Assembly (NCBI GenBank): GCA_030700025.1
Contig: JAUYKI010000010.1
Span: 16,648 to 80,647 of the forward strand
Direction: 5' to 3'
Source of the DNA: a bacterium
GTDB lineage: Bacteria; Patescibacteriota; Minisyncoccia; UBA6257; 02-FULL-45-10c
Length of the DNA: 64,000 nt
Shown: piece by piece, positions 2,938 to 61,363 of the stretch
Layout: every line of letters begins with the position of its first letter
How positions within the stretch are numbered: the first letter of the stretch is position 1
Translations under genes and position numbers: made by a program
The notes under the pieces: generated by a model
The model's input: the letters and a program-made list of their open reading frames with translations, nothing else
What the model was told of the DNA's origin: nothing
The model's database searches: none

Positions 2938-3061
2938 ATCCCGTTAGAGACAACTTAAATTTTTATAAAAAGGCAAAGTGGAGTTAAAAAATATAAAACA
3001 TAGATTATTAATTAAATCGGTCTTTTACGACCATCTAAAGATGGTCTGCCTCTAACGGGAT
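2938..3061 (-). repeat. family A inverted-repeat (MITE-like) element E1
   Basis: terminal inverted repeats ATCCCGTTAGAG...CCTCTAACGGGAT, internal 7-bp hairpin next to one end, AT-rich interior; homologous to E2/E3/E4. Confidence 0.6.
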
Positions 3062-12939: not shown

Positions 12940-13049
12940 CCCGTTAGAGGCAGGTTGCCAAAGGCAACCGTAACTTGGCCGTTTTAATTACAATCGACAT
13001 ATTTATATTTTGAATTTTGATTATCATAATTTATTTTGTTTAGTTGCCT
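12938..13049 (+). repeat. family A inverted-repeat (MITE-like) element E2
   Basis: CCATCCCGTTAGAGGCAGG...TTGCCTCTAACGGGAT; internal GGTTGCC-AAA-GGCAACC hairpin; interior homologous to E4. Confidence 0.65.
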
Positions 13050-13276
13050 CTAACGGGATTCCATTCCTTTACTTTTTGTGCTGTCTTTTGGCAAATTCCT
13101 CTAATTCTTCCTCGGTTACCGGCGCGTCCGCTTCCCGGAATTTTTCAACTTTTTCCGGAGTCATTGCCGGATCAATAGTCGGCTTAACTTCTTTTGGTGA
13201 AAATTTTTCTGGCATAGTTTTATTTTAATTAATTTTTATAATTTCGTAGATTCGTACTCTTTCGTATTTAGTAGCT

Positions 13277-18136: not shown

Positions 18137-18415
18137 TGGTCTCGGTTATATCTCTTTACGGAAACAGAATAACTGCTTCGCCGAATCTCTTTCCTCAACC
18201 TCTCATTCGGAAAACCTTATTCTCCCGCTACCGTTCGTCCTCCCAGCGTGAGGACTCACTGGCTCGTCGGCCTCGCTCTGTCCCGCTTCGCGGGACAACC
18301 ATGCCCGCTCGGCCTCCGGCCGCGCTACGGAGAATAAGGATTTCCTCATTTTTATTATTTTATTAACCGAGCTAATCGGTTCGCTTGGGTTTCGGTAAAG
18401 AGATATCGGCCTTCG
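18137..18415 (-). repeat. mosaic GC-rich structured element A (candidate ncRNA)
   Basis: 19-bp long-range helix joins the ends (18140-18165 with 18392-18415); internal CCTTATTCTCC/GGAGAATAAGG helix; UUCG-capped hairpin GTCCCGC-TTCG-GCGGGAC; related to 25398-25592 and 40655-40800. Confidence 0.5.
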
Positions 18416-19868: not shown

Positions 19869-20509
19869 AGTGTTTTACAAATAAAATTGTTTCACGTGTT
19901 ACAAAATTATCTAAATAGGCTCAAATCTTTACAGATGTTTCACATTTAGTGTGAAACATTGGTAATGAAATAAGCCTAAAGTATCAAAATTGTTTCGCGT
20001 GAAACTTTTTCACTCAGCCGAACCACCTCTCCTCAACCCGCTTCGCTCGTCCAGCGACTCGCTCGCTTGTACTCGCCGCCTTGCCGTTCAAGGAGTTTAC
20101 GCCCCATAACGAACGGACCCTGCCAAGGCGGCTGCGTGGGTATCGGATAAGTGGTGTCGGCATCGCCCTGTGATTAAAAATTAGGATCGCTTATCAAATC
20201 AAAAGTTTCACGTATTACAAAATTACCCAAATAGGCTCAAGTCTAGCACCAATGTTTCACGCTTTTAGTGTGAAACATTATTTTAGTACCCAAAATAAGG
20301 CAATTTGGCCTAATCCGGCAAGACGAATGTTTCACAAAAGTGTTTCACGCCGACACACCTCCTTCTATCTATATCAACCGATAACACCCTTTCCAACGAA
20401 GAAGAGAGGGTTTTTCTATATTGACATTTAATCCTAAATATGATATCATCATATTTAGTTCAGATTTAGTTCAGACTTGATAGTTAAATAACTGCTAGGA
20501 GGAACTGCA
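19869..20509. promoter_or_regulatory. dense regulatory intergenic region with TGTTTCAC palindromes
   Basis: about 12 TGTTTCAC/GTGAAACA sites; two ~110-bp direct repeats (19889-19960, 20205-20281) flank a GC-rich hairpin-rich core (20030-20170); promoter TTGACA-17-TATCAT overlapped by an 11-bp perfect palindrome (20434-20458); tandem ATTTAGTTCAG x2. Confidence 0.55.
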
Positions 20510-24493: not shown

Positions 24494-24539
24494 ATACTAT
24501 ATAGTAGCAATATAATCGGGCTGTAGTATACCGGTAGTA

Positions 24540-24647
24540 TCCCTCACCCTTTGTTATAACGGAGTGTCGTATAGTGGTAGTATACACGCTTCGGGTGTGT
24601 GTGGTCTGGGTTCGATTCCCAGCACTCCGACAAGAAAGGGTGAGGGA
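24540..24647 (+). repeat. family B paired inverted repeat F1 enclosing the inner tRNA
   Basis: TCCCTCACCCTTT (24540-24552) perfectly complementary to AAAGGGTGAGGGA (24635-24647). Confidence 0.65.
24560..24630 (+). tRNA. tRNA-Pro(CGG)-like (inner copy), no encoded CCA
   Basis: acceptor cggagtg/cactccg; anticodon arm cacgc-ttCGGgt-gtgtg; T arm ctggg-ttcgatt-cccag; D arm non-canonical (uaua/uaua), needs tRNAscan-SE. Confidence 0.55.
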
Positions 24648-24710
24648 CGCTTCGGGTGCGTGAGTACTGGGTTCGATTCCCAGCAGCCCGACCAAATTAA
24701 AATTAAATAT

Positions 24711-29606: not shown

Positions 29607-29678
29607 ACCCCGTTAGAAGCCGCCCTCGCTAAAGCGAGTGGCTACGGCCACCTAGGGGCGGTCTGCTTCTAACGGGGT
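29607..29678 (-). repeat. family A inverted-repeat element E3 (short, GC-rich interior)
   Basis: CCCCGTTAGAAGC...GCTTCTAACGGGG 13-bp terminal inverted repeats; nested hairpins inside. Confidence 0.55.
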
Positions 29679-34274: not shown

Positions 34275-34404
34275 CCCTCACCCTTGAAGGGCCTAACGCG
34301 TTTCCGCGTTTTTGTTTCAAGATTAATTTAAGATTAAGCTCAATCGACATTTTAAATAATAAACTAATTATGGGCAATCTCACAGCCCTTCCAAGGTGAG
34401 GGAT
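34273..34404. repeat. family B paired inverted repeat F2
   Basis: ATCCCTCACCCTTG...CAAGGTGAGGGAT flank 105 bp of AT-rich sequence; abuts the xerC stop. Confidence 0.6.
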
Positions 34405-35300
34405 TAATTTCGTCTACGGCCGTGAAATGCCCTATGGACTTCCCGCAATTCTTTATTAGTTAAATGAGTGTAAACCTGGGTGGTGGCAATATTGCTGTGG
34501 CCAAGCATTTCCTGCACCGCCCGCAAATCCGCGCCGTTTACCAGCAAATCCGTGGCAAACTGGTGGCGGAGCTGATGCGGAGTAATTTTTTTGGTAATGC
34601 CCGCTTTCCGCCGGTAAAACTCCACCAGGCGCTGAACCGAGCGCGGAGTAATTTTTCCGATAATTTTCGGATTTGGCCCCTTTGATAAACTAACGAACAT
34701 GACTCCTTCGGCATCACCGCGTTTCGCCAGATAATTTTTCAAAGCGGTTCGGGCGCGATCCGAAATAAACACTATCCGCAATTTTTCGCCCTTGCCCCGG
34801 ACCGTAATTTCTCCGCGGTCCAAATTAAGATAACGGTCTAATTTGCAAAGCTCCGAAAGCCGGAGTCCGGTAGAAAATAAAGTTTCTAAAATCGCTTTGT
34901 CCCGCAAGCCCCGCAAATTATCTGTTTTGGGAGAATTTAAAAATCTTTCCAAATCCGCGTATTCCACAATTTCAATCTGCCGGCGGGGAATTTTCGGAAG
35001 TTCAATTTTATCCGGCGACAAAACTTCGTAATCTTTTTTAATCAGATATTTTAAAAAGTTCCGGATAGCAATTACGTAAAAAGACTGGGTAATTCTTTTT
35101 AACGGCTTGCCGCGCGCCAACTGAAGGCGGAATTGAATGACTTTTTCCGCGGTAATTTCTTCCGGCTTTTTAACTTTTGCGAAAGCTAAAAACGCCTTTA
35201 AATAACGCTCATAATTTTCCCGGGTTTTAATAGAGCGGTTTTTTTCCACTTCTAAATAATCCAGATAGTTTTGCAAAGCATCTTGAACGCTAGCCATGCC
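34404..35300 (-). CDS. xerC: tyrosine recombinase XerC/XerD family
   Basis: C-terminal R..HxxR..Y catalytic region (RHQFATDLL...LGHSNIATTQVYTHL); ORF extends to 35393 but MASVQD is the likely start. Confidence 0.85.
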   Translation of the reverse strand, partial: GMASVQDALQNYLDYLEVEKNRSIKTRENYERYLKAFLAFAKVKKPEEITAEKVIQFRLQLARGKPLKRITQSFYVIAIRNFLKYLIKKDYEVLSPDKIELPKIPRRQIEIVEYADLERFLNSPKTDNLRGLRDKAILETLFSTGLRLSELCKLDRYLNLDRGEITVRGKGEKLRIVFISDRARTALKNYLAKRGDAEGVMFVSLSKGPNPKIIGKITPRSVQRLVEFYRRKAGITKKITPHQLRHQFATDLLVNGADLRAVQEMLGHSNIATTQVYTHLTNKELREVHRAFHGRRRN

Positions 35301-35341
35301 TTTATTATAACCTGTCGCACAATATTTTTTAACCACGCAAA

Positions 35342-35478
35342 ATCCCTCACTTTTGAAGCACCGAAACGTCCAGGCGATTTCCTTAGAGGACACTAATCAT
35401 TTACAAGTAGGGTCTGGAGTTAGAAAACAACGTAGTAAGACAAACGCTTAAAAATCGCAGCGCTTCAAGAGTGAGGGA
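35342..35478. repeat. family B paired inverted repeat F3
   Basis: ATCCCTCACTTTTGAAGC...GCTTCAAGAGTGAGGGA, 17-bp arms. Confidence 0.6.
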
Positions 35479-37185: not shown

Positions 37186-39234
37186 ATGGACTTACAACGA
37201 AAACAATTTAAAACAGAATTTAACGGAAAACCATTAACTTTGGAGGTTTCCCAATTAGCCGGACAAGCCAATGCCGCGGTAATGGGAACTTACGGCGACA
37301 CCACAGTTTTAGTAACCGCGGTCATGAGCAAAAAGGACAAACCTGGGGATTATTTCCCATTAATGGTCAATTACGAAGAAAAGCACTATGCCGTTGGCAA
37401 AATTTTAGGCAGCCGCTTTATGAAACGCGAAAGCCGGCCTTCGGACGAAGCAGTTTTAACCGGCCGTTTAATCGACCGGACTATCCGTCCGCTTTTTGAT
37501 CAAAGAACCCGCCGGGAAGTCCAGGTGGTAATAACCGTGCTTTCTTACGACGGAGAAAATGATCCGGATTTTATCGGACTTTTAACTTCTTCGGTCGCGC
37601 TGGCCACTTCTTCTATTCCCTGGAACGGCCCGGTAGCCGGAGTACGAATTACCAACGGCGACCAATTAAATACTTTTGTAGCCGGCACCGCCGATAAAAT
37701 CAACATGGTGGAATTTGAAGGCAATGAAGTCGCGGAAAGCGAAGCCGTCCAAGCCTTTACCCAAGCCCAGGTCCAGATTAAAGAATTAGTTTCCTGGCAG
37801 AAAAAAATTATTTCGGAAATTGGAAAGCCGAAATCCGAAATTAAACTCAATGAGCCAAAAGCGGAACTGCTGGCAGCTGCTAAAGATTTCTTAAAAGGAA
37901 GATTGGAAAAAGCGGTTTATAATCCGAGCAAAGCAGCGATGTATGAAAACTTAGATTCGCTTAAAGAAGAATTGAAAACCGCGCTCACGGAAAAAGAATT
38001 TTCCGAAGGCGACATTTCCGCGGTAGACGCTATTTTAGAAGAAGAAGTAAACCAATTAGTACACGAAAAGATATTAAAAGAGGAAAAGCGGCCGGATGGG
38101 CGGAAATTAAACCAGTTGCGCGAATTACACGCCGAAGCCGGAATCTTAAAACGACTTCACGGCTCCGCTTTATTCGTCCGGGGCAACACCCAATCTTTGG
38201 CTGTAACTACTTTAGGCGCTCCCGGAGACCAACAGCTTCTGGAAACCATGGAATTTTCCGGAAAGAAAAGATTCATGCTTCATTATAATTTTCCGCCATT
38301 TTCCACCGGAGAAGTGGGCAGAATGGGCGCTCCGGGCCGGAGAGAAATCGGCCACGGCGCTCTAGCGGAAAAAGCTTTGCGCCCGCTTATTCCGACTCAA
38401 GAAGAATTCCCTTATACCATCCGGGTAGTTTCCGAAATTCTCTCCTCTAATGGATCTTCTTCTATGGCTTCAGTTTGCGCCGGCAGTTTATCTCTGATGG
38501 ATGCCGGAGTGCCGATCCGCCGGCCAGCCGCCGGAATCGCCATGGGATTAATTCTGGATGAATCGGGAAAACAATTTAAGGTTCTCACCGACATCCAAGG
38601 GCCGGAAGACCACCACGGCGATATGGATTTCAAAGCTGCCGGAACGGAAAACGGAGTTACCGCAATCCAAATGGACGTAAAAGTTAACGGCGTTACCGTG
38701 GAAATTTTGGAAAAAACTTTGATACAGGCCAAAGAAGCCCGGCTCCAGATTTTAAAAACTATTACCGGAGCGCTTCCGGCGCCGCGCGCGGAACTTTCTC
38801 CGTTCGCGCCCCGGATTATCACTTGGAAAATTAATCCGGAAAAAATCGGCGAACTCATCGGCCCCGGCGGAAAAAATATCAACGGCATTATTGATGAAAC
38901 CGGCGTAACCGCGATTGATATTGAAGATGACGGCTTGGTGCTGATTACTTCTGTTGATGCCGCGGCCGCGGAAAAAGCTTTAGCCCGCGTTAAAGCTAGC
39001 ACTAAAGAATTCCAAATCGGGGATATTGTTGAAGGCAACATTGTAAAAATTCTGGAATTCGGCGCTATCGTGGAATTTGACGGCCGCGACGGCATGATCC
39101 ACGTTTCCGAACTTAAGGAAGGATTTGTTAAAAAAGTTGAGGACGTGGTTAAGCTGGGAGATTTTGTCCGGGCAAAAATCGTGAAAATGGATAACGGAAA
39201 AATCGGGCTTTCAATAAAACAACTCAACAAATAA
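37186..39234 (+). CDS. pnp: polynucleotide phosphorylase
   Basis: 682 aa; two RNase PH domains, KH (GPGGKNINGI) and S1 (GDIVEGNIVKILEFGA) domains. Confidence 0.9.
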   Translation: MDLQRKQFKTEFNGKPLTLEVSQLAGQANAAVMGTYGDTTVLVTAVMSKKDKPGDYFPLMVNYEEKHYAVGKILGSRFMKRESRPSDEAVLTGRLIDRTIRPLFDQRTRREVQVVITVLSYDGENDPDFIGLLTSSVALATSSIPWNGPVAGVRITNGDQLNTFVAGTADKINMVEFEGNEVAESEAVQAFTQAQVQIKELVSWQKKIISEIGKPKSEIKLNEPKAELLAAAKDFLKGRLEKAVYNPSKAAMYENLDSLKEELKTALTEKEFSEGDISAVDAILEEEVNQLVHEKILKEEKRPDGRKLNQLRELHAEAGILKRLHGSALFVRGNTQSLAVTTLGAPGDQQLLETMEFSGKKRFMLHYNFPPFSTGEVGRMGAPGRREIGHGALAEKALRPLIPTQEEFPYTIRVVSEILSSNGSSSMASVCAGSLSLMDAGVPIRRPAAGIAMGLILDESGKQFKVLTDIQGPEDHHGDMDFKAAGTENGVTAIQMDVKVNGVTVEILEKTLIQAKEARLQILKTITGALPAPRAELSPFAPRIITWKINPEKIGELIGPGGKNINGIIDETGVTAIDIEDDGLVLITSVDAAAAEKALARVKASTKEFQIGDIVEGNIVKILEFGAIVEFDGRDGMIHVSELKEGFVKKVEDVVKLGDFVRAKIVKMDNGKIGLSIKQLNK

Positions 39235-39367
39235 TCCCTCACCCTTGCGAAAGCTAACCCCGCCTTAAGGCGGGGTTTTTGCTTCAACAAAAAATAATTG
39301 CGCTAAAAATTACGATTTCTAATTAAATTATGGATTATATAATAATACTTTCGCAAAGGTGAGGGAT
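39234..39367. repeat. family B paired inverted repeat F4 (contains the pnp terminator)
   Basis: ATCCCTCACCCTTGCGAAAG...CTTTCGCAAAGGTGAGGGAT; interior holds AACCCCGCC-TTAA-GGCGGGGTTTTT. Confidence 0.6.
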
Positions 39368-39412: not shown

Positions 39413-40648
39413 ATGGACGATAAACTTCAGGGAAATCAATTGCCGGCTAATCTGCCGATGACGATAGAGCCGGAAACTCCTAAACCATTAACCAATCAAC
39501 CCCAATCCGGCGGATTTTCCCGGCCTACGCCTCCGTCTTTGCCCGCTGAACCGCGTCCGCGAGAAAGCATAGCGCTTCCGCCTTTGCCCGTCCGAAGTCC
39601 CGCAATACAAGACGAAGAAGGGCGCTTCCCAAGGCCAATGACCCCTCCAACTCCGCCTCGACCGGTTTCTTTCACTCCGCCAATGCCGACAATGCCTTCC
39701 CGGCCAATACCCACACCGCCATTGCCCGTCCATAACTTTAGTGAAAGAGGGCTTCCGCCTAAATCTAATTCATCCGACATTTCCGTCCGAACTTTGCAAT
39801 CCGATTTAGAAGCTCTGAAAAAATCTCCAGCCGCTGTGCCAACGCCAAGACCCATTGTTCCGGCATCCGGAACGAGCCCAATTAAAGTAGAAGCGCCAAA
39901 AGCAAAATCCAAATTATTATTCATAATCATAGGGGTTTTAGTTTTGGGTGTTATTGTAGCGCTCGCCGGTTATTTTATAATTTTCCCGTATTTCTTCCCG
40001 ACCCAAACTCCGCCGCCGCCAATCACTAATGTTCCGGCCGCCAATTTAACTCCCTCCGCTCCAACCACTCCGTCTGGAAGCCAAACCGCGCCGCATCAAT
40101 CGCTTTTGACAGCGCCGGCAAATTCCCAAGCTCCGATAACTTTGGCGGGCCTGGATTCTTTCAGCGTTCAGCAAAATTTATTTTCTGAAGCCAGCAACCG
40201 GCCGGCCGGAAATGATATTCTAAAAGAAGTAGTTATTTCTAATGCTAACGGCCAAGTGGCTTTTGCGGATTTCTTCCCGCTTTTCTTGCCTGAATTCACC
40301 AATGCCCAATTAAATACTCTTTTTGAAAATGATTTCACCGTTTTAATGTATTATGACGCCAATGGTTTTTGGCCGATCTATGTTTCTAAATTAAAATCCG
40401 GCGCGGATCTGGCTTCGGCCAAAAATTTAATCAAAGGATTGGAAACTTCTTCCAATTTAACCAATCTTTATCTGGAAACTCCGGGAACTCCAACGGGAAG
40501 TTTCAAATCCGGATCCATTAGCGGTATTGCCACCCGCTATCTGCCATATTCCAAAACCGGCGCTTCGCTGAACTATGCCTGGGTTGGGGATAAACTGGTA
40601 ATAACTACTTCTTTCAACGGGCTTAAAAGGGTTCTGCCTGCCCTATAA
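39413..40648 (+). CDS. proline-rich membrane-anchored hypothetical protein
   Basis: about 150 aa Pro-rich N-terminal region, single TM helix (LLFIIIGVLVLGVIVALAGYFII), 220-aa C-terminal domain. Confidence 0.55.
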   Translation: MDDKLQGNQLPANLPMTIEPETPKPLTNQPQSGGFSRPTPPSLPAEPRPRESIALPPLPVRSPAIQDEEGRFPRPMTPPTPPRPVSFTPPMPTMPSRPIPTPPLPVHNFSERGLPPKSNSSDISVRTLQSDLEALKKSPAAVPTPRPIVPASGTSPIKVEAPKAKSKLLFIIIGVLVLGVIVALAGYFIIFPYFFPTQTPPPPITNVPAANLTPSAPTTPSGSQTAPHQSLLTAPANSQAPITLAGLDSFSVQQNLFSEASNRPAGNDILKEVVISNANGQVAFADFFPLFLPEFTNAQLNTLFENDFTVLMYYDANGFWPIYVSKLKSGADLASAKNLIKGLETSSNLTNLYLETPGTPTGSFKSGSISGIATRYLPYSKTGASLNYAWVGDKLVITTSFNGLKRVLPAL

Positions 40649-40654
40649 ACTAAG

Positions 40655-40800
40655 CTCAGCCGTACCACATCTCCTCTACCGCTCAAACTCCCGGCGAGAA
40701 TTTTCACTGGGTCTCGGGCTTCGCTCTTTCTACCTATTGGCGGAAAGCCCTGCCCGCTCAGCCTTCAGCCCGTGCTACGGAGAATAAGGCTTTCTCGCTT
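40655..40800 (-). repeat. mosaic GC-rich element C (partial homolog of element A interior)
   Basis: TGCCCGCTCAGCCTTCAGCCCGTGCTACGGAGAATAAGGCTTTC parallels 18296-18345; lacks the terminal helix and promoter. Confidence 0.45.
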
Positions 40801-40984
40801 AAATATTACGCGGGTATCGGAAGCAAGAATATTTTGCCTCTAAAAAATAAAGGTCTATCTTTTTCGGCCTTGATTAGACGGATTTAATAGCCTAGTCTAA
40901 GCAGTTGGAAAAAATCATTAACGCTTCCATTTGTATTATTTTTTTCTTGCATATGCTATAATAGTTATATAAATCAGTATTTTA

Positions 40985-41146
40985 AAAAATAGAGGATTGG
41001 AAACCCTCTTATAAGTACCTCTGGCAGTAAACCTGCCCTTACTTCAGCGTAGGGATTCCCTAAAAAGTTTCCATACGCCAAAAGCGTATTCCCGTAAAAA
41101 GGAGGTACGCCCTACGTTGAAGCAAGTGCAGGTTTTTTGTTTGAAA
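40985..41146 (+). ncRNA. candidate structured small RNA with intrinsic terminator
   Basis: 24-bp interrupted closing helix (41031-41054 with 41110-41133) followed by TTTTTT; internal ATACGC-CAAAA-GCGTAT hairpin; exposed AAGGAGG; no adjacent ORF. Confidence 0.35.
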
Positions 41147-41660
41147 TAAAAAAACACCCCTTTTCAGGGGCGGTAGTAGGAAGATAGTGGAGCGGTTAAC
41201 TCTGGGGATTTATATAGTCCCCCAAAGGATTTTAGCTAAATCCTTAGACGTATTACGTAATACGCATTTATCTATCAATCTATTAGTGCTTCTGGGAAAG
41301 GGTGTTTTTTGATTAACTTATATTCTATTCTAAAAGAATTTTCAAGTCAATACCAACCGCTTGATATACTACTTTTATAGTATCACAATCCTTAACGGCA
41401 CTGTTAATAAGTTGTTAATACTTATTTAGTGTATTTTCCTAAATCTTTTTGAATTTTTTTCTCTTGAGCTTCTATTTCAAATTGAATTTCTTCTCCATTA
41501 ACTCATAATTCCCATAAACTCCAGTTCCCAACGGACCATCTCTTGAGATAACGTCTATAAACATTTCCGTCATCGCAAACCACATATTCAAAATCGCCAT
41601 TTTTACTTCTAAAGAAATTTATTATTTTCATAATTTTATTATGACAAATTATTCTTTTAA

Positions 41661-42149
41661 TTAAAAACTTAATCTATCTTTAATAAAGTTTAAAAATGGT
41701 TGCCAAATAGGGCTTGTAATAATTGTTCCGATTATAGTAAGTAAAACAATTTTTAAATCTCCAAATTCCTCTGGAAGATATTTAAAATAAAAATATGATT
41801 TTCTTAGAAGCTTCTTGCCCTTACTAGTTAAATATAAATACTGTCCAGTAACTATTTTAACCCCATCTTCGTCTGAAGAAGTGAGGGCGCCATTAGTTTC
41901 CGTAACTCTTTCTATTAAATATCCATCTTCTAAGCATTCGTCTACTAAATATCTTATCTTTTTCCATTCTTCTCTATTAGTTTCTAAAATTTTTCTTATA
42001 TCTAGTCCGTATTTCTTTTTACCAACATACGCAAAAAAATTTCCTCTTTCAACACCCTCTTTGATGGCATCAATTTTTGTTTGATGCCCCAATTCGGGAG
42101 AAGAATGATAATCTCGTAAATAACTGACTATTTCTCTTTCTTCCCACAT
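41661..42149 (-). CDS. AT-rich hypothetical protein with C-terminal TM helix (162 aa)
   Basis: about 30% GC; no known motif. Confidence 0.45.
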   Translation of the reverse strand: MWEEREIVSYLRDYHSSPELGHQTKIDAIKEGVERGNFFAYVGKKKYGLDIRKILETNREEWKKIRYLVDECLEDGYLIERVTETNGALTSSDEDGVKIVTGQYLYLTSKGKKLLRKSYFYFKYLPEEFGDLKIVLLTIIGTIITSPIWQPFLNFIKDRLSF

Positions 42150-42227
42150 ACGCCTTATTTTACTCCAAAATACGCTTTTTTCAATTTTTTAGTATTAGTA
42201 TTCGCTTGTTTTTTAAGAAATAGGTAC

Positions 42228-43805
42228 CTAACTATTCTCCCGCAAACGATACTGGAACGCCTCGGCTAAATGCCCGGCGGTTATATTTTTGGCTTCTTCC
42301 AGGTCCGCGATAGTCTGGGCGGTTTTTAAAACGCGGTAATAACTGCGCGCGGATAAAAGCGATTTTTCAAACATATCTTTTACAAAATTATCCGCTTCTT
42401 TATCCAATTTAATAATTTCATCACAGGCCTTAGAACTCATTTCCGAATTGGTGAAAAACGGCAGGCCTAGTTTTTTAAAACGTTCCCGCTGAGCTTCTCT
42501 GGCTTGAATAATTTTTTTCCGCATTACATCCGCTGATTTCACGTCCCGGTTTTTATTCTGCAATTCTTCCACTTTTACCCGCGGGACATTAATCTGTAAA
42601 TCAATCCGGTCCAACAACGGCCCGGAAATTTTCTTTTGATAGCGGAACACCTCAAACGCCGAACAACGGCATTCTTTTTCCGGATCGCCGTAATAACCGC
42701 ACGGGCAGGGGTTCATAGCCGCTACCAGCATAAATTGCGCTGGAAAAGTTAAGTGTCCCTTAGCGCGCGAAACTAAAACTTTTCCGCTTTCAATCGGCTG
42801 GCGAAGCGCTTCCAGCAAATCCCGCCGAAATTCCGGCAATTCGTCCAGAAATAAAACTCCACGATGCGCCAAGCTGATTTCTCCCGGACGGGGATTTTGC
42901 CCGCCGCCGATTATCGCCGGAAGCGACGCGGTTTGGTGCGGCGCCCGGAACGGACGCCAATTAATAAAATAATTTTTCTCCAGCATTCCGGCGGCGCTGT
43001 ACACCTTGGTAATTTCCAAAATTTCTTCTTCGCCGGGCGCCGGTAAAATGGAATTCAGCGCTTGCGCCAGCATGGATTTTCCCGCTCCCGGACTGCCCTG
43101 CATTAAAAGATTATGCCCGCCGGCCGCGGCAATCATTAAAGCCCGCTTGGCATTTTCCTGGCCTTTAATATCCGCGATATCCACCATAGAATGCTCGGAA
43201 GATAATGACGGCTGGATTGGAGTTCTTGGCTGGTGGGCGATTACATTCCGATTTTCCAAATGGTTGATAATTTCTAAAAGATTATTAACCGGAATAACTT
43301 TTACTTTATCCGCCATCGCCGCTTCCACCGCGTTTTCTTTGGGAACAAATAATTCGGCAAAGCCCTCCTCTTTTGCCATCTGGGAAATATTTAAAACTCC
43401 GCTTACCGGACGAAGCGCTCCGTCCAGCGCCAGTTCGCCGATAAAAAGTTTAGTGGCGCTTTCAAAATCTTTAATTTGCTTGGTCGCCAAAAGATAACCG
43501 ACGGCGATTGCTAAATCGTAATGCGATCCGGTTTTTTTCAAATCTGCCGGCGCGAGATTAACCACGATTTTCCGATTTTCTTTAGATGGCGGTTTTACAC
43601 CGCTATTTTTTAAAGCCGAGCTGACCCGCTCTTTGGCTTCCGAAAGCGATTTATCCGCCAATCCGACAATATTAAAACTATGGAGACCGACATTTATGTC
43701 GGTCTCCACTTCAATTAAATTCGCTTCAATTCCGTCAATTGAAGCCGAGAAGACCTTAGATAGGTTCATTCCTAATATATTAGAGGCAAAAGAATTAAAA
43801 ATCAA
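42228..43805 (-). CDS. comM: Mg-chelatase-like AAA ATPase ComM/YifB family
   Basis: N-terminal Lon-like domain, AAA core (GSPGAGKSMLA), C-terminal ChlI-like region. Confidence 0.85.
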   Translation of the reverse strand: MIFNSFASNILGMNLSKVFSASIDGIEANLIEVETDINVGLHSFNIVGLADKSLSEAKERVSSALKNSGVKPPSKENRKIVVNLAPADLKKTGSHYDLAIAVGYLLATKQIKDFESATKLFIGELALDGALRPVSGVLNISQMAKEEGFAELFVPKENAVEAAMADKVKVIPVNNLLEIINHLENRNVIAHQPRTPIQPSLSSEHSMVDIADIKGQENAKRALMIAAAGGHNLLMQGSPGAGKSMLAQALNSILPAPGEEEILEITKVYSAAGMLEKNYFINWRPFRAPHQTASLPAIIGGGQNPRPGEISLAHRGVLFLDELPEFRRDLLEALRQPIESGKVLVSRAKGHLTFPAQFMLVAAMNPCPCGYYGDPEKECRCSAFEVFRYQKKISGPLLDRIDLQINVPRVKVEELQNKNRDVKSADVMRKKIIQAREAQRERFKKLGLPFFTNSEMSSKACDEIIKLDKEADNFVKDMFEKSLLSARSYYRVLKTAQTIADLEEAKNITAGHLAEAFQYRLRENS

Positions 43806-44307: not shown

Positions 44308-44934
44308 ATGGCCCAGCGATTCTATCCGCTTTTGGAAGAAGCTCTGGAAGTTGGTTTGGAAACAACGGTTCTCGCCGAAGACGCAAATGGCATCAGCTTG
44401 CCGGAGGGATTTCTGGTTCGGAATCCCAATGACCGGGGAAATAAGCCAAACGCGAAAACTGTTTCTCTGACCCATCCAGGTACGGTGATCCATCACGTTC
44501 CGAACGTAATGGCCGAACTGCTAATTCCGACAACCGAAGCCCAAATTTTGCGGGTAATTCATTTCCATCACATTCCTCCGGGAATCAAAATCCAATTTCA
44601 AAGATTAAATTTCCGGCAGTCGCCGAATCGCGACTTCACGGGATTGATTTGCGGAAGATCCGGAGAAGCGCAAGCTTTTCCAATCCGCCAGCGGGATAAC
44701 AGTCCCTATGCGAATCTGGATTTCTTTTCCAAAACTAAAGAATGGAATCCGCTTTTCGTGAAATACCGGCGGCAAACGCCGCTTAAAGACGCGGAGTTCG
44801 GTTATTTGGAAATTCAGGCGGGAAGAATTCCGCCGAAAATGAAAAATACCGAGGATTCGTATGTCATTGTGGCGCGAGTCCCGGAATCTGCGGTTCCGGA
44901 ATTTCTGCGAACGGCTCAAACTTTTCCAAAATAA
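44308..44934 (+). CDS. hypothetical protein (208 aa)
   Basis: GGAGG RBS; terminator hairpin 44945-44984. Confidence 0.5.
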   Translation: MAQRFYPLLEEALEVGLETTVLAEDANGISLPEGFLVRNPNDRGNKPNAKTVSLTHPGTVIHHVPNVMAELLIPTTEAQILRVIHFHHIPPGIKIQFQRLNFRQSPNRDFTGLICGRSGEAQAFPIRQRDNSPYANLDFFSKTKEWNPLFVKYRRQTPLKDAEFGYLEIQAGRIPPKMKNTEDSYVIVARVPESAVPEFLRTAQTFPK

Positions 44935-44985
44935 TTCTGGATGGTGTCCCACGCCAAACTCATTCTTATTTGTTTGGCGTGGGGC

Positions 44986-45014
44986 TTGACAACGGCTTCG
45001 TTCTATGGTAGTAT
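44986..45014 (+). promoter_or_regulatory. sigma70-like promoter
   Basis: TTGACA - 17 nt - TAGTAT upstream of the 45101 gene. Confidence 0.4.
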
Positions 45015-45100
45015 TTACCATAGACCTTTGAAGCTGGGGAATCCGAAAGGAAACCCCAAAACCAAGCCCCTGTGGGCAATTCCCAAGGAGGACAACGACC

Positions 45101-45871
45101 ATGGAACGATTGACGCCGGAACAGAAGGATCAGAAGTACGGACCGGTCGCGCAGCTGTGCATCGCGGCGTGCCGGGCGCACGGAGAGATCCACAAGGCCA
45201 ACGGCAAGAACAAGGAGAAGCCGGGAACGGTTTCTCCCGAGACGATTCAGGAGCTGGTGACCGGGGCCCGGGCGGCTGACGAAGCCATTCGGAACGCCAC
45301 GGCCAGCTACACGCAGGACGACATTCGGCTGATGGCTGCCTACCTCGAGCAGGCGGTGGTGCGCGTTGCGCTCACCCCCGGCGAGAGCGGCGGACTGACG
45401 TTCGATGTCGGCGTGGCTCGCGGGGTGGTGAATGCCATCCAGAGCCTGCGCCACATGCCTGGGGTGGCGGAGAACTTCGTTCGCTACCACCTCCAGCGGA
45501 CTGGGACGTTCCTGGATCTGTGCGACGTGACCGGTTCCGTGCCGAAGTACGGCATGAACACCGCGAGCGTTCGCTACAGTCTGGAACGGCTCGCCAGCAA
45601 GATCGCCGAGGCTCGCAAGAGCTACGAGACGGCCAAGACTGAGGGTCGGCTTCTCGAGGCGGGAAACCTGGGTGTCGCGGTCGCGAATCTGAACGGGCTC
45701 AACAGCCGGGCCAGCTCGCTCTTCGAGCGGTGGCTCACTGAGCGGCAGCCGGCCACGGCCAACGCTTCCATCGGGGAGCAGGTCGGACCGGAAGTGCAGT
45801 CGGCGGTGGCGGTGGCGGAGACGACTCCGACGCCCGCTCCGGCACGGCGGCCCGCGCGTTCGCGTCGGTAA
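45101..45871 (+). CDS. hypothetical protein, GC-rich (about 62% GC), basic C-terminal tail
   Basis: AAGGAGG RBS 11 nt upstream; composition far from the window background. Confidence 0.5.
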   Translation: MERLTPEQKDQKYGPVAQLCIAACRAHGEIHKANGKNKEKPGTVSPETIQELVTGARAADEAIRNATASYTQDDIRLMAAYLEQAVVRVALTPGESGGLTFDVGVARGVVNAIQSLRHMPGVAENFVRYHLQRTGTFLDLCDVTGSVPKYGMNTASVRYSLERLASKIAEARKSYETAKTEGRLLEAGNLGVAVANLNGLNSRASSLFERWLTERQPATANASIGEQVGPEVQSAVAVAETTPTPAPARRPARSRR

Positions 45872-45962
45872 TCCTTCGGTCATCTCAGGCCGAGGGCAGT
45901 AACTGAGTTCCGGGAGCTCACACATTCGAAAGAATGTGTGAGCCCCGGGCTCACATTTTTTT

Positions 45963-45998
45963 GTATGCGAATGCCTTAACGAATAGGCACATACGAAT
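45963..45998 (-). repeat. PR-family core copy R3 (reverse orientation)
   Basis: exact reverse complement of the 36-bp core ATTCGTATGTGCCTATTCGTTAAGGCATTCGCATAC. Confidence 0.65.
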
Positions 45999-46200
45999 TT
46001 TTATAGAATTTATTTTTCACTCTTAGAATCTCTTTTTAATAATTGGATTCAGCCTCAAACTAAGAGTGAAAAATAAGTTCTTTAAGAAAAGCAATATCTG
46101 TACCAATATTTTTTACTAAAAATTATTTTGGGGAAATATTGGTGCAGAGATTGCACAAACTTGTGTCCGCAAGGCCACAAAATACAGGAAGGAGATACAG

Positions 46201-46992
46201 ATGATGAATCGACCGCCTCGACCGGATGATTTTCTCCGAGCGATTTCCATGCCTACGGCGCGCATTCCGGATCCGACCAAGGACTTCGGCATGTACGGCC
46301 GGATGGATGGAGCTTTTCAGGGAATTCACGAGTACCTGGATAGCCTCCGCAGCAGATACGGGCGGGTGGGCTATTCCGGCCAGAACCTGATGAGCGACCT
46401 GACCAAGGATTTCATCACCGCGGTTCAACACGGAGATGACGAAGAGGCAGCTCACATTCAGGTCGGCATTCGCCAGCTCAGCGCTGGTTTCGAGGAATCG
46501 GTCCAGGATGGCGCTCTGCCGGAAAGCCCGAATAACTTCAGCCGTACCATGTGGCAAGAGCACATGGAGGCCGAACTCTTTGGGAGGATCTGGCCCGTCA
46601 TCAACGGAAAGTCGGAAACCGTTCCCGAACTCACGAACTGGAAGGACTTCAAGGGAAACGTGCAGGCCTACCTGTATGGCTACCTGGATGTCGTCAGCGA
46701 GCTGGGCAAGTCGGTGACCGACGAACTGGCGAAGCCCGACATCACGACGGAGTACGAGTTCGCGGTTTTCGAGCGCTTTCTCGCCATCGCGGATTCGATC
46801 ACGCTTCGGCTTTCAGCCGAACGGCACATTCCGAATTACGTCATCAGCAACGGCTATGGCCGCTGGATGGCGTTCTCCAACAAGCTCCGGACTGCCTATG
46901 GCACCATCGCTCATGTTCGCCGCGAGTACAGCCTGCGGCGCAGCATGCAACGCATGATCCAGAACTCAGTCAAGTCCACCCAGACGGCCTAA
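46201..46992 (+). CDS. hypothetical protein, GC-rich (263 aa)
   Basis: GGAAGGAG RBS; GNRA-capped terminator CCCCGTTACG-GAAA-CGTAGCGGGG-TTTTTT at 47003-47034. Confidence 0.5.
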   Translation: MMNRPPRPDDFLRAISMPTARIPDPTKDFGMYGRMDGAFQGIHEYLDSLRSRYGRVGYSGQNLMSDLTKDFITAVQHGDDEEAAHIQVGIRQLSAGFEESVQDGALPESPNNFSRTMWQEHMEAELFGRIWPVINGKSETVPELTNWKDFKGNVQAYLYGYLDVVSELGKSVTDELAKPDITTEYEFAVFERFLAIADSITLRLSAERHIPNYVISNGYGRWMAFSNKLRTAYGTIAHVRREYSLRRSMQRMIQNSVKSTQTA

Positions 46993-47126
46993 GTAAGCCG
47001 GTCTGGAACCCCGTTACGGAAACGTAGCGGGGTTTTTTCTTTTATGTTTTCATATCGTGTATAAAATTGATTATCTACTAACGTGACGGTCGTCTAGTTA
47101 GTAGATAAAGTAAAATAAGAAATAAA

Positions 47127-61244: not shown

Positions 61245-61363
61245 ATCCCGTTAGAGGCAACTAAACCTAAAATATTATGCCAATCAAAATTAAAAATATA
61301 AAAAGTCGGAAATATTTAATCGGCCTGCTACGGTCGCCTATGGCGACCTGCCTCTAACGGGAT
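61245..61363 (-). repeat. family A inverted-repeat (MITE-like) element E4
   Basis: ATCCCGTTAGAGGCAAC...CCTGCCTCTAACGGGAT; hairpin GGTCGCC-TAT-GGCGACC; interior homologous to E2; right inverted repeat contains the ATG of the 61362 gene. Confidence 0.65.

Follow-up and report, generated by a model that had tools for sequence, protein, structure and literature searches.

Among described systems, the closest counterparts of the locus analysed here are intrinsic terminators, with a stem of 5-14 bp and a loop of 3-8 nt, and orphan trans-acting sRNA genes carrying unpaired C-rich (UCCC) motifs, such as those of the RsaE/RoxS type of Firmicutes. The small genomes of CPR bacteria (Patescibacteria) usually hold little non-coding DNA. 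To our knowledge, very few regulatory RNAs have been recognized in this group, and we know of no sRNA targets or chaperone in CPR bacteria. The present locus, a long interrupted hairpin (E1), lies within a 64-kb window (the whole stretch of DNA that was analysed) of a member of the Paceibacterota (CPR). Judged by its sequence, E1 combines promoter-like and terminator-like signals whose order and strand are correct, has no coding potential and belongs to no known family. Our preferred reading, held tentatively and with somewhat less than even confidence, is that E1 constitutes the body and terminator of an independent + strand non-coding RNA of ~170 nt, carried on a lineage-specific low-GC insert.

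The gene order in this part of the window is S15, NYN, PNPase (37186-39234, + strand) and a gene for a 411-aa membrane protein (39413-40648, + strand), followed by ~1 kb of non-coding DNA, a 42-codon ORF (41503-41631, - strand) and a 162-aa gene (41661-42149, - strand), beyond which lie ComM (42228-43805, - strand) and a DksA/TraR-type gene. E1 is located between convergent genes, 380 nt past the stop codon of the 411-aa gene. The 1-kb non-coding stretch reported in the first-pass annotation was confirmed; it also carries a copy of a GC-rich repeat (40655-40800) and the 42-codon ORF. The features of the region are as follows.

40650-42227 (~1.6 kb), no strand assigned: lineage-specific insert between the 411-aa gene and ComM, carrying E1, a second hairpin (E2), the 42-codon ORF and the 162-aa gene
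40954-40962, + strand: extended -10 box TGCTATAAT, with TATAAT at 40957-40962
40991-41009, either strand: short stem-loop AGAGGATTGGAAACCCTCT, with 5 bp and then an A.C mismatch on the + strand
41029-41054, + strand: 5' arm of the E1 closing helix, with a pairing probability of ~1 except at two mismatch positions (partition function)
41055-41101, + strand: interior of the E1 helix, in which the direct repeats ATTCCCTAAAAAG (41055-41067) and ATTCCCGTAAAAAG (41088-41101) flank a 6-bp hairpin (41073-41089)
41098-41106, + strand: SD-like AAAGGAGGT, whose GGAGG core is predicted to pair with CCC at 41059-41061
41110-41135, + strand: 3' arm of E1, running into T6-G-TTT (41133-41142), a proposed intrinsic terminator
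41117-41149, + strand: 10-codon mini-ORF (MKQVQVFCLK) with a TTG start, 11 nt past AGGAGG
41149-41311 (~165 nt), + strand: E2, a larger hairpin with arms of ~40 nt (41145-41187 and 41272-41314; 72% Watson-Crick)
41155-41172, - strand: canonical intrinsic terminator CGCCCCTGAAAAGGGGTG, with a 7-bp GC stem and then T7, overlapping the 5' foot of E2
41322-41350, - strand: promoter-like TTGACT-17-TAGAAT (10/12 match), which would drive an RNA antisense to E2

The GC content drops to 19-33% over 41300-42200. The flanking gene order is conserved in relatives, and the stretch from the 411-aa gene to ComM is not: the gap measures 89 bp in L001 and 104 bp in L004, while L002 and L003 carry a different insert at that spot, with a 247-aa gene and conserved hairpins of its own. 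We therefore consider 40650-42227 to be a lineage-specific insert at a variable spot. The insert contains no transposase, relaxase or Rep gene, and neither a reverse transcriptase nor a known defence protein is encoded there.

The other insert has a structured segment in its own right. A conserved non-coding module of ~200 nt, unlike that of E1, follows the 411-aa homologue in L002 (7225-7450) and L003 (7297-7525). Its parts are a terminator, a perfect palindrome of 16 bp (ATCTACTATC...GATAGTAGAT) and a stem, GGCAAACCA...TGGTTG, in which one inner hairpin is swapped for another between L002 and L003; compensatory changes occur in nine pairs.

The E1 helix consists of 24 bp, interrupted and including one G.U pair (G41047-U41117), and encloses an interior of 55 nt. 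Its 5' arm is made up of AAACCUGC (41029-41036), CUU (41038-41040) and CUUCAGCGUAGGG (41042-41054), and its 3' arm of CCCUACGUUGAAG (41110-41122), AAG (41124-41126) and GCAGGUUU (41128-41135). The length of the helix and its single G.U pair had been given correctly in the first-pass annotation, but the single-nucleotide bulges described there are in fact two 1x1 mismatches (C41037.U41127 and A41041.C41123). The T6 at 41133-41138 was found, as described, at the 3' foot of the helix and is followed by G-TTT; its first three T residues pair with A41029-41031. The inner hairpin, ATACGC (41073-41078), CAAAA, GCGTAT (41084-41089), likewise proved to be as reported, and to this we add the direct repeat of the interior, which was absent from the earlier description. 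No direct repeats that would represent a target-site duplication flank the arms of E1, and no tandem repeats were found at E1.

E1 is a real structure, with a stability far above chance. Its 129-nt core folds at -52.0 kcal/mol, compared with -27.9 +/- 3.4 kcal/mol for dinucleotide shuffles (z -7.0; none of 200 shuffles was equally stable), and a GC-regressed scan of 130-nt MFE values places E1 within roughly the top seven most structured loci of the window. The 190 nt upstream are unstructured (z 0.07), so that structure begins at the predicted transcript start. Long interrupted hairpins enclosing 50-100 nt are common in the intergenic DNA of this genome, which lowers the surprise and makes structure alone weak evidence for a dedicated RNA gene.

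The putative start of transcription is predicted from the extended -10 box TGCTATAAT at ~40969-40971; the box has no recognisable -35. The motif TGNTATAAT occurs six times in the window (2.45 expected), and each of the other five copies lies upstream of, and is co-oriented with, a same-strand ORF start, which makes the motif a fair promoter predictor in this genome. Four of these five lie between genes or ahead of the probable true start, at 21-140 nt from it, two of them with good -35 boxes; the fifth (13320) sits within the 3'-terminal part of an ORF and precedes the next one by ~380 nt. On the + strand, the short stem-loop at 40991-41009 would form the 5' stem-loop of the RNA. Read on the - strand, the same sequence has an 8-bp stem with a G.U pair, followed by ATTTTTT, and is terminator-like.

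At the level of sequence, the foot of E1, GCAGGUUU, runs into U6-G-U3, i.e. an intrinsic terminator of its own. E1 escaped the terminator scan, whose rule is limited to loops of 3-8 nt: the U-tract is present, and the geometry of stem and loop falls outside the rule. The scan found no canonical + strand terminator between the stop codon of the 411-aa gene (40648) and E1, so that E1 may simply terminate this gene. The second hairpin of the first-pass annotation (41155-41172) is present, although it is terminator-like only on the - strand and doubles as the 5' foot of E2. No - strand promoter-like site was detected directly upstream of E1 (41136-41200, between E2 and E1); a - strand E1 RNA would therefore need read-through of the terminator at 41172-41155. 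Promoter-like sites of the kind seen at 41322-41350 number 14 in the region, against 6.3 expected, and this approximately twofold excess in AT-rich DNA makes them weak evidence.

The first-pass annotation had described an exposed AAGGAGG inside E1 and had proposed an SD-mimicking decoy. The partition function gives probabilities of being unpaired of 0.19, 0.17, 0.36, 0.02 and 0.03 for the five residues of GGAGG, which is mostly paired because of its predicted pairing with CCC at 41059-41061; the open part is the A-run only. The decoy found no support either, since pairing of the GGAGG core within the bubble is predicted and AAAGGAGGT shows no significant rarity (two copies in the window against 0.63 expected, a number reached in 16 of 100 shuffles). 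On the - strand, 41098-41106 reads ACCUCCUUU, which is anti-SD-like. The start codon of the 10-codon mini-ORF is predicted to be buried in the 13-bp upper part of the closing helix, and the mini-ORF is probably not translated. The surroundings of E1 contain no ORF of at least 60 aa, and the small ORFs nearby gave no Pfam or PADLOC signal.

E2 encloses three small hairpins and has T6 at 41306-41311; a 41-codon ORF (41187-41312) exactly spans it. On the + strand it folds at -67.7 kcal/mol (z -6.9), and the - strand is 17 kcal/mol less stable (-50.4 kcal/mol, z -5.0). By hand count there are ~8 G.U pairs on the + strand versus 2 on the - strand, a difference that is not significant (binomial p ~0.1). 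The strand asymmetry of E2 suggests a + strand RNA structure in the E1/E2 block. Folded jointly, E1 and E2 reach -127 kcal/mol (z -8.2), with no detectable homology between them. E2 would serve either as a domain reached by read-through or as template for a convergent antisense RNA.

Family searches placed E1 in no described RNA class. Comparison with Rfam, which the first-pass annotation had proposed as a check, gave no relevant match for E1, either at the gathering threshold or at E <=10; at gathering thresholds, Rfam 15 matched only 7 tRNAs in the window. The best local match below threshold, to the model of a plant miRNA precursor (25.7 bits, with a gathering score of 100; E 0.012), is that of a generic long hairpin. 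Among relatives, E1 is missing at the same site from every one that was found. Such lack of conservation had been named beforehand as an argument against an RNA gene, and here it carries little force: the relatives are distant (flanking proteins 40-67% identical), so that their lack of E1 indicates that it is not ancestral at the site and is not evidence of non-function. No E1-like sequence was present at the syntenic loci of L001-L004, fetched via the 411-aa homologues. The closest ComM relatives in a scan of GTDB genomes were Candidatus Paceibacterota MAGs (64-67% identity) with different downstream genes, and 80 ComM loci did not contain E1; the non-coding kb showed no pseudogene remnant.

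The flanks of the 162-aa homologues have nothing in common with E1 or E2. Searches of phage and plasmid sequences by blastn and of phages by tblastn gave no match, and scans of IMG/VR with three DNA patterns and one protein profile found nothing. A metagenome scan with the direct-repeat pattern of E1, a poor choice of pattern, returned 44 loci, all of them unrelated tandem repeats. A single-sequence covariance model run over the window and 19 CPR loci detected E1 itself only. Within the window, and likewise across all loci fetched, E1 and E2 each occur as a single copy. The only other copy of E1 comes from an independent assembly of the same organism, L005 (Logan SRR13727534), identical over 1701 nt (100%), which shows that the region is not an assembly artefact but adds no sequence variation. 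The organism is also represented by the NCBI MAG with locus tag Q8P76_02445. When targets of E1 were sought by duplex energy among the gene starts of the window, none stood out; the 162-aa gene ranked 13th.

The 162-aa gene neighbours E1 on the insert. Homologues of its product (52-64% identity) are found in settings unrelated to this one, among them a phage-like contig that carries an HNH gene (L008). Neither Pfam nor PADLOC gave a match for the protein; an AlphaFold model of low confidence (pLDDT 61) suggests a winged-helix-like core and a C-terminal membrane helix. A -10 box lies 7 nt before the ATG (TAAAAT-AAGGCGT-ATG), a leaderless-type arrangement. The insert holds 6 of the 27 window copies of GCGTAT, where 0.67 would be expected (P 7e-5, an excess recognised post hoc), with sites at 41073-41089, 41260, 42027, 42148 and 42170. 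The 10-mer AAAGCGTATT is common to the apex of E1 and the promoter spacer of the 162-aa gene, and the apex sequence CAUACGCC is complementary over 8 nt to GGCGUAUG at the leaderless-type start of this gene. The homologues keep the -10/AAGGCRYATG start but not GCGTAT, and the motif link between E1 and the 162-aa gene is therefore treated as a lead only.

Downstream of the 162-aa gene by 30 nt, the 42-codon ORF (region 41472-41631, - strand) ends at a TGA, past which its frame continues for ~30 more codons (...WEL*VNGEEIQFEIEAQEKK...), and a second 42-codon ORF overlaps it in another frame. This region may be a decayed or recoded small gene.

If E1 is the body and terminator of an independent RNA, RNA polymerase would start near 40970 from the extended -10 box TGCTATAAT, and a small 5' stem-loop would form in the transcript before the 24-bp interrupted helix closes the 55-nt junction. 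The foot of the helix, together with UUUUUUGUUU, would act as an intrinsic terminator, with some read-through possible into E2, which has a U6 of its own. Within the junction, GGAGG would pair with one of the two repeated AUUCCC(G)UAAAAAG motifs, so that the CAAAA loop at the apex and the A-rich single-stranded parts would stay accessible. As to function, we suggest with low confidence a regulatory RNA serving its insert, e.g. the neighbouring 162-aa gene. The more specific proposal that E1 and E2 are the structured RNA pair of a small mobile cassette, controlling the gene for the membrane-anchored, winged-helix-like 162-aa protein, is very doubtful; a possible route would be the common GCGTAT and AAAGCGTATT motifs or the 8-nt complementarity between CAUACGCC and GGCGUAUG. 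If this were true, CPR bacteria would possess an RNA-protein accessory module that has not been described so far.

Of the two readings offered by the first-pass annotation, a small RNA gene is the one best supported by sequence signals, namely the extended -10 box and the U-tract at the foot of the helix, both on the + strand, from which transcription and its strand are inferred. We favour it because it is the simplest reading that accounts for the largest number of signals. The other, an unusually elaborate terminator, is a live rival, and the E1 helix probably terminates transcription in either case. Taken strictly, it makes E1 (with E2) a passive terminator or insulator, in which stacked hairpins stop transcription from the 411-aa gene and from the 162-aa/ComM side and no free RNA has a function. 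The convergent setting, the U-tract, the lack of a canonical + strand terminator between 40648 and E1, the - strand terminators facing E1 at 41172-41155 and 41009-40991, and the presence of a terminator right after the homologous gene in L002 and L004 all fit this view. However, E1 lies 380 nt past the stop codon with a good extended -10 box in between, the clear terminators of this organism are short GC hairpins (e.g. 39261-39283, after PNPase), a gap of 89-104 bp suffices in relatives, and a 24-bp helix with a structured 55-nt interior and direct repeats exceeds what termination needs; we regard a purely passive role as unlikely. Transcription in the opposite direction would make E1 the 3' part of a - strand RNA, starting from the 41350-41322 promoter or from the 162-aa operon, passing through the 41172-41155 terminator and ending at the 41009-40991 hairpin and its U6, with a junction displaying ACCUCCUUU, a mimic of the 16S anti-SD tail. 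That hairpin has its 8 bp (with a G.U) and AUUUUUU on the - strand only, the 211-nt region around E1 is slightly more stable on this strand (-73.4 versus -67.4 kcal/mol), and the promoter match is 10/12; on the other hand, no promoter-like site lies between E2 and E1 while a textbook terminator (7-bp GC stem and U7) does, promoter-like sites are only ~2x enriched in this AT-rich stretch, the E1 core is slightly better on the + strand (-52.0 versus -49.4 kcal/mol, with one G.U on either strand) and E2 is much better there. We judge a - strand RNA quite improbable.

The near strand symmetry of the fold also fits a DNA-level relic with no role as RNA. E1 would then be an imperfect palindrome derived from the mobile DNA of the insert, such as one of its ends, a site of recombination or a single-strand origin, or else a palindrome bearing an operator; we consider this interpretation improbable. 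The insert is missing from relatives, the homologues of its gene occur in unrelated contexts such as the phage-like L008 with its HNH gene, and the apex, ATACGC-N5-GCGTAT, has the classic shape of a dimer operator, with GCGTAT enriched in the insert and AAAGCGTATT recurring in the promoter spacer of the 162-aa gene. Nevertheless, E1 occurs once in 64 kb with no target-site duplication, it has no phage, plasmid or IMG/VR match, and the insert lacks a transposase, relaxase or Rep gene; reading of the sequence reveals no attC-type core sites, the GCGTAT enrichment was seen post hoc, and GCGTAT is not kept in the 162-aa homologues. A coding role was considered as well, with E1 and E2 as parts of one small module, coding or similar to a type I TA locus, composed of the 10-codon leader ORF, the 41-codon ORF (41187-41312) folded within E2 with a sequestered SD, and an antisense RNA from the - strand promoter. 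Its appeal lies in the 9-nt SD AAAGGAGGT followed 11 nt on by TTG, the exact match of the 41-codon ORF to the span of E2, the long-range closing helices with a convergent antisense promoter and terminator, and the mobile-looking insert. Yet the 41-aa product has no transmembrane stretch and contains eight charged or polar breaks, the putative SD of its ORF is only 3-4 nt from the GTG start, the leader start codon is buried in the 13-bp helix and there are no Pfam or PADLOC matches, which leaves such a module extremely improbable.

Several other repeats and structures were observed in the window. The sequence CCCGTTAGAGGC(A) forms four inverted pairs (2940-3059, 12940-13057, 29609-29676 and 61247-61361) in which an invariant stem of 15 bp encloses 45-95 nt; the sequence was matched 10 times, where 3.9 matches were expected. 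In three of the four, the element stops exactly at the start codon of a gene, and one of them is preceded, at a distance of 8 nt, by a TGGTATAAT promoter. The 12940 and 61247 copies can be aligned over their full length, with compensatory changes in the inner hairpin (GGUUGCC/GGCAACC versus GGUCGCC/GGCGACC). There was no Rfam match to these elements, and from their sequence they look like an undescribed family of 5'-leader RNA elements.

A second family, CCCTCACCCTT / AAGGGTGAGGG, is represented by 7 copies (0.8 expected), including three inverted pairs (24541/24636, 34275/35467 and 39236/39355). One pair surrounds a tRNA-Pro, another a gene for a XerC/D-like tyrosine recombinase (34404-35393), and the third, with 28-nt arms (86%), the 94 nt between PNPase and the 411-aa gene, which hold a terminator and TATAAT-like boxes. 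These pairs could be invertible segments (invertons) or processing stems. The tRNA locus itself (24517-24697) contains a split or nested tRNA: ~24517-24540 and ~24647-24697 together make a valid second tRNA-Pro(CGG) according to ARAGORN, with an insert of ~105 nt separating its D arm from its anticodon arm; this insert has the CCCTCACCCTT inverted repeat on its flanks and the complete annotated tRNA-Pro(CGG) (24560-24631) inside.

The GC-rich repeat of ~120-150 nt is found at 40655-40800, 18190-18345 and 20013-20150; its fold is not better than chance (z -0.6). The copy after the stop codon of the 411-aa gene shares 74% identity with 18225-18344 (E 2e-13), terminal inverted repeats (CCTTATTCTCC...GGAGAATAAGG) delimit that at 18214-18340, and the one at 20013 lies between two GTTTCACA...TGTGAAAC hairpins that resemble each other (19916-19978 and 20225-20290). 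The most stable 130-nt windows of the 64 kb (45841-46090, 44911-45070 and 46981-47110) sit in the intergenic gaps of a high-GC block at 44.3-47.1 kb, with hairpin arms at 45901-45927/45932-45958 and 29-nt arms (90%) at 45998-46026/46060-46088. The hypothetical genes flanking these gaps are conserved in relatives, which indicates that the block is not foreign.

If expressed, a gene-free stretch of 1 kb bearing two hairpin RNAs of very high stability on a strain-specific insert would be a useful example; at present E1 is a single-genome orphan, one more sRNA or terminator candidate. The neighbouring repeat families are better suited to establishing function because they have several diverged copies, whereas E1 and E2 are sequence singletons, and the CCCGTTAGAGGC leader hairpins, the CCCTCACCCTT inverted pairs and the split tRNA-Pro are the more promising objects nearby.

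A number of known systems were rejected as counterparts of E1: integron attC sites (no R'/R'' core sites), Y RNA/Rsr (no Rfam match and no Ro gene seen), SRP RNA (no Rfam match), IS200/IS605 ends (no TnpA or TnpB), and type III TA or retron-type systems (no tandem repeats, no reverse transcriptase, and E1 placed downstream of, and on the opposite strand to, the 162-aa gene). E1 resembles type I TA loci of the hok/sok and txpA/ratA type in its heavy folding, long-range closing helices, convergent signals and accessory insert, but there is no hydrophobic toxin ORF (the + strand ORFs have 10 and 41 codons, with no hydrophobic stretch of ~18 residues) and no family match. With MITE-like and palindromic repeats it has in common a long imperfect inverted repeat in non-coding DNA, in a genome with several such repeat families; its single copy in 64 kb and the lack of a target-site duplication led us to reject this assignment. 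The likeness to 6S RNA consists in the long closing helix, the large internal bubble and the apical stem-loop, yet the core has ~125 nt instead of ~180 and the apical arm 6 bp only; 6S RNA was dismissed on account of this short arm and of the absence of an Rfam match at E <=10 (RF00013-type models).

The two closest systems remain those named at the outset. Like intrinsic terminators, E1 has a stable stem leading into a U-tract and an upstream A-run that pairs with the first U residues, and it stands at the end of convergent units. It departs from their usual format in its 24-bp stem with two mismatches and 55-nt interior, in its distance of 380 nt from the nearest stop codon, in the promoter-like box in front of it and in the absence of a call by the terminator scan. 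In contrast to the sRNAs of the RsaE/RoxS type, E1 has no Rfam match and its C-rich motif is predicted to be paired with the internal GGAGG; it resembles them in being intergenic and non-coding, in its putative promoter and terminator of its own, in its length (within ~100-200 nt) and in the UCCC motifs of its non-helical region.
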